Assembly: GCF_050320075.1 (NCBI RefSeq)
Contig: NZ_CP190018.1
Strand: one strand, 5' to 3'
From: Escherichia coli
Lineage (GTDB): Bacteria; Pseudomonadota; Gammaproteobacteria; Enterobacterales; Enterobacteriaceae
Length of the DNA stretch: 64,000 nt
The notes beneath the pieces are model-generated. The model was not told the origin of the DNA and did not search any database. It saw only the letters and a list, made by a program, of their open reading frames with translations. Positions 31,880 to 38,807 of this stretch are shown here, one piece after another (position 1 is the stretch's first letter; every line of letters begins with the position of its first letter). The position numbers were made by a program, and so were the translations under genes.

Positions 31880-31965
31880 TGTGTTTACTCCTGATTAGCT
31901 ATGTGTATTTGGCGATGCCTGATATGTCATCGCGGCAAAACGCGTCCATTGAATATAGCCAATAT

Positions 31966-32922
31966 TTAAACCACCCGATCCAGCCCCAACATGCCGCGAG
32001 CCTGAATGAAACAGAGCAGCAACGTTCCCCATAAGGCCATCGTCAGGTAGGGGCTTATACCGAGAATATTGAAGCCGCTTTCAATAATTTGCAGAAGAAA
32101 CAGCGCCAGCACCATACCAATTATCCGCCCGCTGCCGCCGTCCGGATTAACCCCGCCGAGTACTGCCGCGAGGATTGACACCAGCAAGTACGATTCGCCA
32201 TAAGAGGCCTTAGCCGAGTTGAGTTTCGACATCATCAAAAATGCCGCTACCGCACAAAGCAAGGCGGAAATGACATAAACCCAAATCAGCACCCGACGAG
32301 TGTTAATGCCGGAGTAAAGTGTTGCTCGTTCGTTAGAACCAATCAGATAAATGGATTTACCGAGCGGCGTTTTCTCCAGCAATATCCACAGCCCCAGCGC
32401 CACTGCGGCAAACAACCACATCGGTAGCGGAATACCGAACCACTGTGCATGATTCAACCACAGCACCCATGAGGGATAATTGGCAATGGCGCTACCGCCT
32501 GTCACCAGAATATTTACCCCTTTGAGCAACGTCATCATCCCGAGTGTTGCAAGAATTGGCGACACTCGAATACCAGCAATCAATACGCCGTTACATAAAC
32601 CGATTATCACCGCCGCGCCAGCGCCCGCCAGCAGCGTAGCGACAACCGTAGCAATACCCGGTGGATACTGAGTCGCCACCCACGCCATCACCAGTGAACA
32701 GGCGTTAGCAGTGGCTATAATTGACAAGTTAATGCCACCGCAAAGCATGGTCACCGCCATAGCCAACGCCAGAATGCCCAGCACGGGCATTTGCGAAGCG
32801 ACGGACTGGAAATTACTTATCGACCAGAAAATCTCCGGCATAGTAATGCTGAACGCGGCAACAGTTAGCACCAGCAGGCCGATCAAGTAAAACTCAACGT
32901 TATTACGCCACGATTTTTTCAT
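31966..32922 (-). CDS. sugar ABC transporter permease (CUT2, RbsC-like)
   Basis: ORF 31966..32952; ATG at 32922 has a GGAG Shine-Dalgarno and overlaps the upstream stop (ATGA); polytopic. Confidence 0.8.
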   Translation of the reverse strand: MKKSWRNNVEFYLIGLLVLTVAAFSITMPEIFWSISNFQSVASQMPVLGILALAMAVTMLCGGINLSIIATANACSLVMAWVATQYPPGIATVVATLLAGAGAAVIIGLCNGVLIAGIRVSPILATLGMMTLLKGVNILVTGGSAIANYPSWVLWLNHAQWFGIPLPMWLFAAVALGLWILLEKTPLGKSIYLIGSNERATLYSGINTRRVLIWVYVISALLCAVAAFLMMSKLNSAKASYGESYLLVSILAAVLGGVNPDGGSGRIIGMVLALFLLQIIESGFNILGISPYLTMALWGTLLLCFIQARGMLGLDRVV

Positions 32923-33890
32923 AGCAGACTCCGGTTCTGATGCTGACTCCACGCCGTGGCGCTAATGCTGGCAACGATGATGATGCCGGTGATCAATGTT
33001 TGCCAGTAAGACGAGACTCCCAATAAATTTAGCCCGTTTTGCATCACTGCCAACAACACCACGCCGAGCAAAGTACCGGTTAACGTGCCGCGCCCGCCGA
33101 GCAAACTAGTGCCGCCAAGCACCACCGCAGCCAGTACTGTCAGCTCATAACCCAGAAGAGAATCGGGGGCGACAGTCATCACCGTCCACGACTGCACTAC
33201 ACCCGCAGCGCCAGACATCAATCCCATATAGCCGTAGACGAAAAGTTGCAGTTTCAGCACGCTAAAGCCGATGCGACTGGCGGATTCACGGTTCCCGCCA
33301 AGGGCATAAATTTTGCGCCCTACACTGGTGAAATTCATGATAAACGCTGTCAGCAGCACCACCGTAATCATGGCGATCAGCGGCAGACCAAGGCCATAGT
33401 CATAGCCGTCAGCATCGGTGTACTTGAACAACATTCCCCCCTGCTCAAACCACGGCGGAAAGTCGTACAGCCACACACCTTTACTCAACCATAACAGCAG
33501 GCCATAGAAAATATTCAGCGTCGAAATGGTGATGATGATAGACGGCACCCGTAGGCGATTAACCAGTAAGGCGTTAATTAAGCCAAGTAAAATGCCGATG
33601 CCGCCCGCCAGTGCAAACGCAACAGCAAAGTTGCCACCAATTTTTTGCAGCAGCAGCACCATGCCGTATTGCGCAATGATGGTCATTGCCGGAAACGAAA
33701 TATCAATCCCACCGGAAATTAACACCACAAACAAACCACAGGCGAGAATAGTCAACATGGCATAGTTATTGGCGAGATCGTACAAATTACCGAATGTCAG
33801 AAACTCGTCGCTGCGCCAGGCAAGGCCAACAAACAGCACCACAATCAGTAATGCCAGCCAGAATTCATGGCGTTTTTTCAGTTCAGCCAT
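32919..33890 (-). CDS. sugar ABC transporter permease (CUT2, RbsC-like)
   Basis: 323-aa polytopic ORF, translationally coupled to the ATPase upstream and the second permease downstream. Confidence 0.8.
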   Translation of the reverse strand: MAELKKRHEFWLALLIVVLFVGLAWRSDEFLTFGNLYDLANNYAMLTILACGLFVVLISGGIDISFPAMTIIAQYGMVLLLQKIGGNFAVAFALAGGIGILLGLINALLVNRLRVPSIIITISTLNIFYGLLLWLSKGVWLYDFPPWFEQGGMLFKYTDADGYDYGLGLPLIAMITVVLLTAFIMNFTSVGRKIYALGGNRESASRIGFSVLKLQLFVYGYMGLMSGAAGVVQSWTVMTVAPDSLLGYELTVLAAVVLGGTSLLGGRGTLTGTLLGVVLLAVMQNGLNLLGVSSYWQTLITGIIIVASISATAWSQHQNRSLL

Positions 33891-35367
33891 TTACCACCTC
33901 CGCAATCCTGGCCTGAGAACTGCTGTCAGGCAGGAAGCTATGGGTGATCTGACCTTTTTGCATTACCAAAATCCGGTGGCTTTGATACCACGCTTCTTCA
34001 ATTTCATCGCAGATCATCAATACCGCAATGCCATGAGCCGCCAGATCGCTGATAATGCCGTATATTCCTGCTTTGTTGGCGATATCAACACCGATAGTCG
34101 GGCTATCGAGAATCAACAGTCGTGGCCCAATCGCCAGCCATTTGGCGATCGATACTCGCTGCGCGTTACCCCCAGAAAGCGTATTCACCGGGAGATGTGG
34201 GTCAGAGACTTTGATGGTCAATGCCTTGATTAGCCTGTCCACCAGGTCACGCACTTTAGCTTCACTCAGAAAGCCGAAGCGATCTTTTACCTTGTGAAAA
34301 ACAGTGCTAATGATGTTGTCTTCAATAGATTGCGCCATCACCAAACCGCGCGACATGCGATCTTCCGAAACATAACCAATACCGTGGCGGATGGCGTCCT
34401 GGTTACTATGCAGTGTAACCAGCTGGCCGTTGATGAGGATCTCGCCAGCATCCGGTCGGGTCATACCAAACAGACTCAGACATAATTCCGTGCGCCCCGC
34501 ACCAAGCAGGCCAACAATCGACACCACTTCGCCCGCTTCCACCCGCAAGTTAATATTTTGATATTCCCCATGACGACTTAAATTACGCACCTCCAGCACT
34601 GGGATGCTGGATTTTCCCTGCCACAACTCTCGCACCTGATATTCAAACTCCTGGCCGGTCATCAGGAAACCGAGTTGTTTTGTGGTCATCTCTGCAGCCG
34701 GAAAGGTCCCGACCAGCTCACCATCTTTCAGCACTGAAATACGGTCGGAAACTTCCATCACTTCTTCCAGACGATGACTGACGAAGACCACGCAGATCCC
34801 GCGTTCCCGCAATTGATGCACCACCTGTAATAACCCTTGCACTTCCTGATGGGTCAGCGAAGCGGTTGGTTCATCCATCACGATCAACCGTGCGTCCTGC
34901 GCCAGTGCACGGCAAATTGCCACCAGCTGACAGCGGGCAATTGAAAGCTCAGAAACGAGCGTATCCAGTGGCAATGTGACGTTAATACTGGTCATTGCCG
35001 CCTGCGCCACCTCACGCAGACGACGGCGGTTAACAAACAGACCGTGGTGATAGTGATTCACGGCGATATTCTCCCAGACACTCAGGTTAGGAAATAAAGA
35101 GAGGTCCTGATAAATCACCTGAATCCCCTGCGCCACCGAAGCGGCGGGTGTCAGCTTTGACCAGTTTTTCCCACCAAGCGTAATTTCCGCTCCCTCATCC
35201 GGGCGATAAACACCGGACATAATTTTAATCAACGTCGATTTACCACAGCCGTTTTGCCCGGCAAGGCAGTGCACCTCACCCGACATAAAGTCGAGAGAAA
35301 CATCGCGCAGCGCTCGCGTGGCATGAAACGTTTTGTTGATATGACGAAGGGAAAGGAAGGTTTCCAT
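33883..35367 (-). CDS. sugar ABC transporter ATPase with duplicated nucleotide-binding domains (RbsA-like)
   Basis: ORF 33883..35382; ATG at 35367 (METFLSL); Walker A GQNGCGKST, signature LSGGNAQR and Walker B LILDSPT. Confidence 0.85.
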   Translation of the reverse strand: METFLSLRHINKTFHATRALRDVSLDFMSGEVHCLAGQNGCGKSTLIKIMSGVYRPDEGAEITLGGKNWSKLTPAASVAQGIQVIYQDLSLFPNLSVWENIAVNHYHHGLFVNRRRLREVAQAAMTSINVTLPLDTLVSELSIARCQLVAICRALAQDARLIVMDEPTASLTHQEVQGLLQVVHQLRERGICVVFVSHRLEEVMEVSDRISVLKDGELVGTFPAAEMTTKQLGFLMTGQEFEYQVRELWQGKSSIPVLEVRNLSRHGEYQNINLRVEAGEVVSIVGLLGAGRTELCLSLFGMTRPDAGEILINGQLVTLHSNQDAIRHGIGYVSEDRMSRGLVMAQSIEDNIISTVFHKVKDRFGFLSEAKVRDLVDRLIKALTIKVSDPHLPVNTLSGGNAQRVSIAKWLAIGPRLLILDSPTIGVDIANKAGIYGIISDLAAHGIAVLMICDEIEEAWYQSHRILVMQKGQITHSFLPDSSSQARIAEVVNG

Positions 35368-37849: not shown

Positions 37850-38099
37850 TTCAGCCTCATTGCAGGGTAGTCAGGAAGTGTTCGCCCAAATTAGCGCGCT
37901 GGAGAGAATAAGAATTTTCGAATATTTTTATGCAGAATAAACAGCCCTATTTCAGGCAGCTATTAAAAATTTGGTTATAAATATGGACAAAACGGGCAGT
38001 AACAATAAGTGTGACAATCATCACGTAAAAAACAGCAAAATAAACAAAATTAGCGATACTTTATGTTTGTGAGCTTATTTCGCGTAGAAAAATAGTTAT

Positions 38100-38510
38100 C
38101 TACACAACGTCAATAAGGGCATATTCTTCAAAGATAACGTCCATTTCTGGTGAATAGCATCCTTCTGTCTGGAAAAAACGACGGTGTTCATTACGCCAAT
38201 ATTCAAGACTGAGGTCACCTTCACCTTCCTTACGGGCAAGCTCTGCGGTGACATCAGAAAAGCGCAGTAAATGCAGGCCAATCACTCTGATAACACAGAC
38301 AGGCTCACCACGGCTATTTCCTACTATCTTATACTCACCAATCATCGGAAATGCGTTGTCTTCAATACATCCCGCCAGCGAACCACAGGAAGCTGTTTTA
38401 ACACCTGTCGCAATCAACGTTGCGAGGTGATCGGCCAACGCTGCTGAATCGCCAAAAGTACAAAAGGAAGCATGGGGATATTTTTGTGAGATTTTTTCTT
38501 TTATGGTCAT
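38100..38510 (-). CDS. small cytoplasmic protein, possibly ASCH/PUA-like fold
   Basis: ORF 38100..38543; preferred ATG at 38510 (MTIKEKISQKYPHASF); fold assignment is from sequence impression only. Confidence 0.55.
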   Translation of the reverse strand: MTIKEKISQKYPHASFCTFGDSAALADHLATLIATGVKTASCGSLAGCIEDNAFPMIGEYKIVGNSRGEPVCVIRVIGLHLLRFSDVTAELARKEGEGDLSLEYWRNEHRRFFQTEGCYSPEMDVIFEEYALIDVV

Positions 38511-38807
38511 GAGAATATTTTCGCGATTACGGAAAAAAATCACATCTTAATTACTGTTGATAACCATCAGCAAGAGGATCATTGGTTTTTCTATGTTTAA
38601 TCTTTTTTATCCGAAGCCGGTCACATTTATGGCTTGATAAATACCTTTGTTAAAACTCACTTTTGTGTATTTCTCTCAAATAATCCCCTGGAAATTATGC
38701 CGGGAGATTATAAAGTTCAGGATCATTCATTAGCAAACCATTGCTGCCCCACTCCCTGGGGCTTTAAATCTCTTACGATTCACCATTGCAGGCGTTTCAA
38801 ATGCGTA

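Follow-up and report, generated by a model that had tools for sequence, protein, structure and literature searches.

An Aau transporter locus interrupted by IS150 between yahJ and yahK of Escherichia coli

Introduction

Which system occupies the space between yahJ and yahK in strains of Escherichia coli where these two genes lie far apart, and does it still work? The question is raised by a stretch of 64,000 nucleotides of E. coli DNA (contig NZ_CP190018.1; hereafter, the window means the whole of this stretch), which matches the chromosome of a chicken isolate, E. coli YZLc1-3 (NZ_CP123240.1), at 100% identity and shares its gene calls. Positions 31880-38807 of the window, 6.9 kb in all, are exactly the yahK-yahJ space, as judged from the list of open reading frames (ORFs) and from the RefSeq annotation of the identical record. 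In K-12, the two genes are neighbors, as an earlier note on this DNA had stated (they are 376 bp apart in MG1655). The note had placed here about 6.9 kb with a binding-protein gene, a tandem-domain ATPase, two permeases, and a small protein, and all of these were located, on the minus strand. The feature is real, its coordinates are correct, and the observation is partly confirmed: the genes listed are the right ones, and what was overlooked is a 1,443-bp insertion sequence (IS), IS150, that splits the binding-protein gene.

We identify this interval, with high confidence, as the Aau locus of E. coli (aauABCD, Z0415-Z0419, OI-17) together with an ASCH-domain gene upstream of it, probably inactivated by IS150 in this strain. 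The Aau system is already known and characterized, and the finding is real but ordinary. The additions made here are incremental on this known system: a deletion scar in K-12, predicted and conserved AraC/CRP sites, and a linkage to araC in Pasteurellaceae.

The interval is the Aau locus

Aau is the “accessory L-arabinose uptake” system of enterohemorrhagic E. coli (EHEC) (Cottam et al., Nat Commun 2024, PMC11127945; Cottam et al., 2025, PMC12307932). In EHEC, Z0415 is the binding protein, Z0416-7 the ATPase, and Z0418 and Z0419 the permeases, all on O-island 17 (OI-17; PMC11127945; PMC12307932). The same order of binding protein, fused ATPase, and two permeases is found between yahJ and yahK in the window. 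Behind the split aauA, on the minus strand, come aauB (Z0416-7; 33883-35367), an intact gene for a fused tandem ATP-binding cassette (ABC) ATPase of 494 residues, named “sugar ABC transporter ATP-binding protein” in RefSeq, and two intact permease genes annotated in RefSeq and assigned by gene order, aauC (first permease, Z0418; 32919-33890; 323 residues) and aauD (second permease, Z0419; 31966-32922; 318 residues). The translation of aauB contains two Walker A motifs, GQNGCGKS and GLLGAGRT. The Aau proteins are 98.5-99.4% identical to their O157:H7 counterparts, with four substitutions in aauB, two in aauC, three in aauD, and no stops.

The identification rests mainly on the binding protein. 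Once IS150 and one copy of its CCTG repeat are removed, aauA reads as an uninterrupted protein of 327 residues, identical to that of strain N24 and differing by two residues from the O157:H7 allele. It aligns over its full length with PDB entry 9I1M (E 5e-213, 99% identical), which is AauA, Z0415, the solute-binding protein of the Aau system (PMC12307932). In the crystal, alpha-D-ribulose is held between Trp43 and His167 and receives hydrogen bonds from Lys37, Glu118, Glu196, and Ser223 (PMC12307932). The numbering of the 9I1M chain is the native one plus 1, and all six contact residues (K36, W42, E117, H166, E195, and S222 in native numbering) are present in the rebuilt protein. AauA binds D-ribulose with a dissociation constant (Kd) of 1.98 µM and L-arabinose with one of 598 µM (PMC12307932). 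The earlier note had called the substrate unknown and would have given up its reading if the binding protein matched a fully characterized transporter. Such a match exists, and the substrate is not unknown, because the binding protein is the characterized AauA, which binds D-ribulose and L-arabinose.

According to the scheme published for EHEC, L-arabinose-bound AraC turns on the aau promoter, periplasmic AauA captures D-ribulose (Kd about 2 µM) and has a weak affinity for L-arabinose (about 0.6 mM), and AauB, AauC, and AauD import the sugar. The L-ribulokinase AraB phosphorylates D-ribulose, which enters the pentose phosphate pathway. Phosphorylation of imported D-ribulose by AraB is reported by the authors, who describe the aau locus as being without an associated metabolic enzyme (PMC12307932).

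The locus thus shares with Aau of EHEC O157:H7 its chromosomal position, its five genes and their order, the six contact residues, and a near-identical promoter region; it differs in that IS150 interrupts aauA in codon 65. Another natural defect is reported for EDL933 and TUV93-0, where the ATPase is annotated as split, Z0416-7 (PMC11127945; PMC12307932). In contrast, the ATPase is intact here.

IS150 splits aauA

The element within aauA is a copy of IS150 (IS3 family; 36214-37656, plus strand), 1,443 bp long, whose transposase (36261-37630) is read with a programmed frameshift. Its ends, TGTACTG...CAGTACA, and the flanking 4-bp direct repeats CCTG at 36210-36213 and 37657-37660 were read from the sequence. 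Size, ends, frameshifted transposase, and target duplication are all those of IS150, and the copy is 99.4-99.7% identical to annotated IS150 copies. It is inserted after nucleotide 193 of aauA, in codon 65. Both halves of the gene are pseudogenes in RefSeq. The 5′ fragment (37657-37849, minus strand; “missing C-terminus”) holds the start codon, the signal peptide MNKRFVINMVSSLLLGAALISAPLQA, K36, and W42. The 3′ fragment (35416-36213, minus strand; “missing N-terminus”) holds codons 65-327 and the stop codon; it lacks both a signal peptide and its own promoter and is deprived of K36 and W42, which now sit on the detached 5′ fragment. With aauA split by IS150, the strain therefore encodes no intact transporter, and an intact, expressible four-gene set is not found here.

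A 100-bp probe over the left junction, for which a full match was demanded, found the exact insertion in YZLc1-3 and in the human isolate Ec-U3, and thus in two of 5,426 complete E. coli genomes. It is therefore recent and rare.

As to the consequences, IS150 at codon 65 parts the promoter, the signal peptide, and the first 64 codons from the remainder of aauA and from aauBCD. Judging from the gene structure, a functional binding protein would not be made, the 3′ fragment having neither the signal peptide nor two of the contact residues. Transcription of aauBCD is probably poor. On the aau-sense strand, the right end of IS150 contains a hairpin (37579-37613, minus strand) with a 15-bp stem followed by TTTAATTT, a terminator-like site in the scan, which a transcript from the aau promoter meets 44 nt past its entry into the IS. 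This hairpin is likely a polar block. The system would then be a fresh pseudo-operon.

Two points weigh against such a loss of function: we infer it from gene structure, and an outward promoter of IS150 or read-through could express aauBCD. A consensus scan of the left end of the IS found no outward promoter-like site. The opposite view, that the system still works, would have AauBCD served by another binding protein or IS150 frequently and precisely excised. aauBCD are intact and the aauA reading frame is perfectly restorable, as this view would have it, yet it has to contend with a 3′ fragment devoid of signal peptide, K36, and W42, with a strong hairpin and T-tract just within the IS, and with the missing outward promoter-like site. 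Moreover, ABC importers of the CUT2-type class rely on a cognate binding protein. We regard a still-working system as very unlikely.

Family placement and closest relatives

The CUT2-type architecture proposed in the earlier note, in which a single fused ATPase and two permeases go with one binding protein, was borne out. The 494-residue fused ATPase, the RbsC/AraH-type permeases, and the periplasmic binding protein are those of CUT2 (TC 3.A.1.2). AauB matches the AraG, XylG, RbsA, and MglA models end to end. Against the AraG, YtfR, XylG, AlsA, LsrA, and RbsA models, its E values run from 1e-112 to 1e-126, all below cut-off, AraG being the top NCBIfam match (421.7 bits). The NCBIfam matches of the permeases, RbsC/LsrD/AraH-type for AauD and AraH/RbsC-type for AauC, also stay below the equivalog cut-offs. 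Finally, AauA matches many CUT2 binding-protein structures, of the RbsB/LsrB/RhaS fold.

A resemblance to the Lsr and YtfQRT-YjfF importers had also been proposed. It holds for the architecture; membership of either system does not stand, the NCBIfam scores being far below the cut-offs. For YtfQRT-YjfF, which was rejected, the scores and cut-offs are 411 and 850 bits for YtfR, 63-97 and 535 bits for YtfT, and 75-123 and 363 bits for YjfF, and the NCBIfam search returned no YtfQ match for AauA.

The Lsr system calls for more attention, RefSeq naming the intact AauA alleles “autoinducer 2 ABC transporter substrate-binding protein” and LsrB being among the more similar characterized binding proteins (111 bits). 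Six residues of LsrB, K35, D116, D166, Q167, P220, and A222, were reportedly identified as binding autoinducer 2 (AI-2) by Pereira and colleagues in 2009; all six were verified in the K-12 LsrB sequence. The identity between AauA and E. coli LsrB is 29%, and of the six positions K35 alone is conserved, the others being E, Q, H, F, and S. The scores are far from the cut-offs (111 vs. 384 bits for LsrB, 385 vs. 586 for LsrA, 115 vs. 388 for LsrC, and 146 vs. 500 for LsrD), no lsrK, lsrR, lsrF, or lsrG appears near the locus in the RefSeq annotation, and the crystal structure contains D-ribulose. On identity, contacts, and scores, membership of the Lsr system was rejected, and an Lsr-like AI-2 importer, as suggested by the RefSeq product name, is to be considered extremely improbable. 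LsrACDB and Aau have in common the CUT2 architecture, LsrB and AauA falling in one broad binding-protein cluster, and differ in gene order: the binding-protein gene comes last in lsr and first in aau. Because the locus is not an Lsr system, the RefSeq name is misleading where it is given to intact AauA alleles, for example in the comparison loci L002 (6537-7520) and L005 (6451-7434).

Among systems with a known sugar, the Rbl D-ribulose locus of Citrobacter rodentium shares with aau a homologous four-gene CUT2 cassette and the binding of D-ribulose (PMC12307932). Rbl-type loci such as that of C. amalonaticus are about 60-63% identical per subunit. Unlike aau, they are followed by a SIS-domain gene and by the gene for a dedicated FGGY pentulose kinase, and none of 20 has an AraC-type motif upstream. 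Without a kinase of its own, E. coli aau borrows AraB, unlike Rbl (PMC12307932). With AraFGH and araBAD, aau shares membership of the AraC regulon, and the araBAD promoter layout is predicted for it. However, the AraG and AraH scores are below the equivalog cut-offs, and AauA was unrelated to AraF in the searches run and prefers D-ribulose more than 200-fold (PMC12307932).

The Klebsiella pneumoniae orthologue, PDB 3D02, matches mature AauA with an E value of 4e-188, and the full Klebsiella cassette is 82-92% identical. Its surroundings are different: a trpS-like gene lies upstream, and yah genes are absent. The 3D02 structure comes from structural genomics and bears the misleading label “putative LacI-type transcriptional regulator,” and no publication on it was found in the literature library searched. 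A paper retrieved by its match to “OI-17” (PMC3681947) was set aside; it concerns OI-172 and is irrelevant to Aau.

Predicted control by AraC and CRP

The aau promoter responds to L-arabinose only and is silent in an araC mutant (PMC11127945). AraC dependence of a promoter fragment of roughly 300 bp was shown by experiment (PMC11127945). In the window, 250 bp separate the stop codon of the ASCH gene from the start codon of aauA. They are nearly identical to the O157:H7 sequence and hold four predicted promoter elements, at 37934-38025 (minus strand), which were recognized by comparison with the K-12 araBAD regulatory region. A CRP-like box, CGTGATGATTGTCACA, lies at 38010-38025. An AraC I1-like half-site, TGCCCGTTTTGTCCATA, at 37982-37998, is identical to araBAD I1 at 12 of 17 positions. 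It starts 11 nt past the CRP box, and its own TCCATA is 22 nt downstream of the box, vs. 24 in araBAD. An I2-like half-site, TAACCAAATTTTTAATA, follows at 37961-37977, 4 nt after the I1-like site. The last element is a weak -10 hexamer, TATTCT, at 37934-37939, where araBAD has TACTGT at about the same place. AraC would act here jointly with cAMP-CRP, at the predicted sites at 37961-38025.

The CRP-like box and the AraC-like half-sites are conserved. In an alignment with the DNA that precedes the orthologous cassettes in Klebsiella, Franconibacter, Mangrovibacter, Symbiopectobacterium, and Aeromonas, the conserved columns are almost solely GTGA-N6-TCACA, T(A/G)TCCATAT, and the TAGC that follows, in regions that have otherwise diverged. 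The Klebsiella I1 site is identical to araBAD I1 at 15 of 17 positions. The combined CRP-to-TCCATAT pattern occurs once in the window and never in 100 shuffles. Of 60 Aau-type loci (AauA identity of at least 68%; the loci are related and the counts not independent), 48 have a looser I1-I2 junction motif in the 350 bp that precede aauA. The motif occurs in none of 20 Rbl-type loci and in 1.75% of 350-bp pieces taken at random from the same set of loci.

In Pasteurellaceae, an araC orthologue is found directly upstream of the cassette, in the Mannheimia haemolytica locus (L055, 6873-13945) and in 16 other loci; the Mannheimia protein scores 384 bits vs. the NCBIfam AraC cut-off of 208. A 531-residue FGGY (xylulokinase-like) kinase is encoded directly downstream of the cassette. 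With araC, cassette, and kinase side by side, this looks like a self-contained, AraC-controlled locus for a pentose or pentulose.

Direct binding of AraC and CRP at the predicted sites of E. coli is an interpretation of these motifs, and three points call for caution. In E. coli, the I1-like site agrees with araBAD I1 at only 12 of 17 positions and has a weak B-box (TGCC vs. TAGC), no AraC binding site was mapped in the two papers (PMC11127945; PMC12307932), and AraC could act on aau indirectly.

Within the operon, the 48-bp gap between aauA and aauB contains a GC-rich hairpin (35389-35406, minus strand), TCGGGGCGAAAGCCCCGA, with a 7-bp stem followed by TTCTTATT, a terminator-like site in the scan. 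It is possibly an intra-operon attenuator or an RNA stabilizer, and it may determine how much binding protein is made relative to the membrane components. Z0417 is more strongly induced than Z0415 in the published EHEC RNA-seq, at odds with this last idea (PMC11127945).

Relationship with yahK, yahJ, and the ASCH gene

Every backbone gene in this part of the window is on the minus strand, the IS transposase being the plus-strand exception. From this co-directionality, it had been proposed that the transporter forms one functional unit with yahK and yahJ. This proposal finds no support. Across about 80 genomes, ranging from Klebsiella to Vibrio and Pasteurellaceae, the four genes of the cassette stay together, and outside E. 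coli homologues of yahK, yahJ, or the ASCH gene never adjoin it. The cassette has a predicted AraC/CRP-type promoter of its own. In EHEC RNA-seq, L-arabinose induced Z0417 43-fold, Z0415 26.5-fold, and Z0418 7-fold (PMC11127945). Z0414, probably the ASCH gene by its numbering, was induced 3.7-fold, and yahK and yahJ figure in no L-arabinose differential-expression list (PMC11127945).

The 86-bp spacer between aauD and yahK (31880-31965, minus strand) is without an intrinsic terminator: none was found in it by the consensus scan, and it folds no better than its shuffles (z = 0.52). The spacer is kept in K-12, at 98.7% identity. Some read-through from aauD into yahK, and with it co-transcription, is possible on the sequence. 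This gap and the common orientation of the genes are what favors an intact transporter of unknown substrate forming one operon or pathway with yahJ and yahK, as the earlier note had it. We find this highly improbable: IS150 splits the binding-protein gene, the substrate is known, the authors report no associated metabolic enzyme, the cassette is never linked to yahK/yahJ homologues in the other genomes, yahK and yahJ function without it in K-12, and both are missing from the lists in which Z0415, Z0417, and Z0418 rise.

The small protein is encoded by an ASCH-domain gene (38100-38510, minus strand; 136 residues; Pfam PF04266, E 2.4e-21), with PDB relatives 1t62 and 3s9x. The gene tracks the operon in E. 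coli (2,208 vs. 2,212 genomes) and is not beside the cassette in other genera. It is DNA absent from K-12 and stands outside the conserved transporter cassette. A promoter-like site of its own, TTGCTA-18-TATAAT, lies between yahJ and the gene (38707-38736, minus strand; 10/12, from the consensus scan alone), and the gene is deleted together with aau in K-12-type genomes.

A deletion scar in K-12

The segment had been described as a strain-specific accessory one. Alignment against K-12 and other E. coli genomes, which had been suggested as a check, shows that it is indeed accessory, the genes being absent from this position in K-12 and variably present among the 5,426 complete genomes. It is not strain-specific: the ABC operon is carried by 2,212 of these genomes (probe without the IS, coverage of at least 80%), and the ASCH/promoter part by 2,208. 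Aau is known to be enriched in phylogroups B1, E, and D and scarce in A and B2 (PMC11127945), which agrees with the genome counts here. In 393 genomes the operon probe had no match at all, not even to the 72-bp aauD remnant described below, so at least one further yahJ-yahK allele must exist, for example a larger deletion or a replacement.

Is the short K-12 junction an ancestral, empty site? Its 376-bp spacer is made up of five parts. The first, 158 bp, corresponds to 31880-32037, that is, the 86-bp spacer and the last 72 bp of aauD. The second, 63 bp, has no BLAST match in the segment and gives a weak Smith-Waterman alignment to about 38005-38050 (score 32, vs. a shuffle mean of 17.3, a standard deviation of 3.5, and a maximum of 35); this alignment does no more than suggest a diverged copy of the sequence immediately upstream of the AraC sites. 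The third, 72 bp, corresponds to 38078-38149 and holds the last 50 bp of the ASCH ORF. The fourth is 21 unmatched bp, and the fifth, 61 bp, corresponds to 38745-38805. K-12 thus retains the last 24 codons of aauD (31966-32037) and the last 16 of the ASCH gene. The aauD remnant translates to ALWGTLLLCFIQARGMLGLDRVV*, the C-terminus of AauD, which is also conserved in the AauD of Klebsiella and Mangrovibacter, in unrelated genomic contexts. The junctions of the scar are the same in K-12 (phylogroup A), in an ST131 strain (B2), and in a chicken isolate.

On this sequence comparison, the “empty” site of K-12 is a deletion scar and not a site that was never occupied. K-12-type genomes descend from the filled allele by two deletions, of about 4.5 kb and about 0.6 kb, because the junctions are shared and the remnant of the AauD C-terminus is cassette sequence; the exact end of the first deletion is uncertain by tens of bases.

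The literature terms OI-17 and Aau “horizontally acquired” (PMC11127945), a label that the scar qualifies without overturning. A horizontally acquired island in a formerly empty yahJ-yahK junction, with K-12 as the ancestral unoccupied state, would fit this label and the occurrence of the cassette in unrelated contexts in other genera. It would also fit a negative result that weighs against an old presence in the genus, no AauA homologue having been returned from representative genomes of other Escherichia species; the locus may have been acquired by the E. coli ancestor rather than be older. Against an unoccupied ancestral K-12 stand the aauD and ASCH remnants in its spacer, together with its diverged 63-bp stretch, possibly from upstream of the AraC sites, the conservation of that aauD C-terminus as cassette sequence in Klebsiella and Mangrovibacter, and the common junctions in phylogroups A and B2. 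In addition, the GC content of the operon, 0.48-0.54, is no different from that of the flanks; the AT-richer stretches are the IS and the ASCH/promoter part only, and base composition gave no sign of foreign origin across the operon. An acquisition into an empty junction of the K-12 type is thus unlikely, while it is fully possible that the E. coli ancestor acquired the locus at an earlier time and that deletion came afterwards.

We lean, with some reserve, toward Aau being an old AraC-regulon member of the E. coli ancestor, located between yahJ and yahK and repeatedly lost, rather than a pathogenicity-island trait acquired by EHEC. The ancient double-deletion scar common to phylogroups A and B2 supports repeated loss, as do recent losses such as the IS150 insertion described here and the EDL933 defect. 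Further support comes from the CRP and AraC I1-I2 promoter layout, family-wide across Gammaproteobacteria, and from the araC and kinase genes adjacent to the cassette in Pasteurellaceae.

Two other loci retrieved in the survey are worth recording. In E. coli SCPM-O-B-8794 (NZ_JAATUR010000022.1, 1-8000; L036), yahB-yahJ and the ASCH gene are missing upstream of aauA. A pdeL/yahA-like EAL phosphodiesterase gene and ykgE/F-like genes are found directly upstream instead, and the Aau proteins diverge slightly more than elsewhere, with 96-99% identity. A contig of 4.7 kb deposited as “MAG: Bacteroidales bacterium W0P29.034” (SFEK01000152.1, 264-4694; L008) holds an aauABCD set whose proteins are 99-100% identical to those of E. 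coli and is almost certainly a mis-binned E. coli contig.

Flanking genes and gene starts

The interval is bordered by two minus-strand backbone genes annotated in RefSeq. yahK (30830-31879) is a 349-residue ORF for an NADPH-dependent aldehyde reductase and lies outside the system, and yahJ (38808-40190) is a 460-residue ORF of the amidohydrolase family. For two of the aau genes, the ORF reaches upstream of the annotated start, to a GTG at 32952 for aauD (annotated start at 32922) and to a TTG at 35382 for aauB (annotated ATG at 35367); the shorter annotated starts, which agree with the O157:H7 annotation, were used. An Rfam scan of 30000-40500 gave no family reaching its gathering score.

Significance for the Aau system

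In this strain, the proper label for the locus is aauABCD, a D-ribulose/L-arabinose importer flagged as inactivated by IS150, and not an “autoinducer 2” transporter. What is at stake in such a loss is known from EHEC, where Aau gives a competitive advantage of about 100-fold: in the gut of streptomycin-treated mice, an aau deletion mutant fell behind in competition by about two orders of magnitude (PMC11127945). Natural knock-outs such as the IS150-broken aau are ready material on when Aau is dispensable. The K-12 scar and the conserved boxes for AraC and CRP sharpen the picture published so far of the origin and control of Aau. If the repeated-loss history holds true, Aau-type transporters would represent a conserved, AraC-controlled module for the uptake of pentuloses or pentoses.

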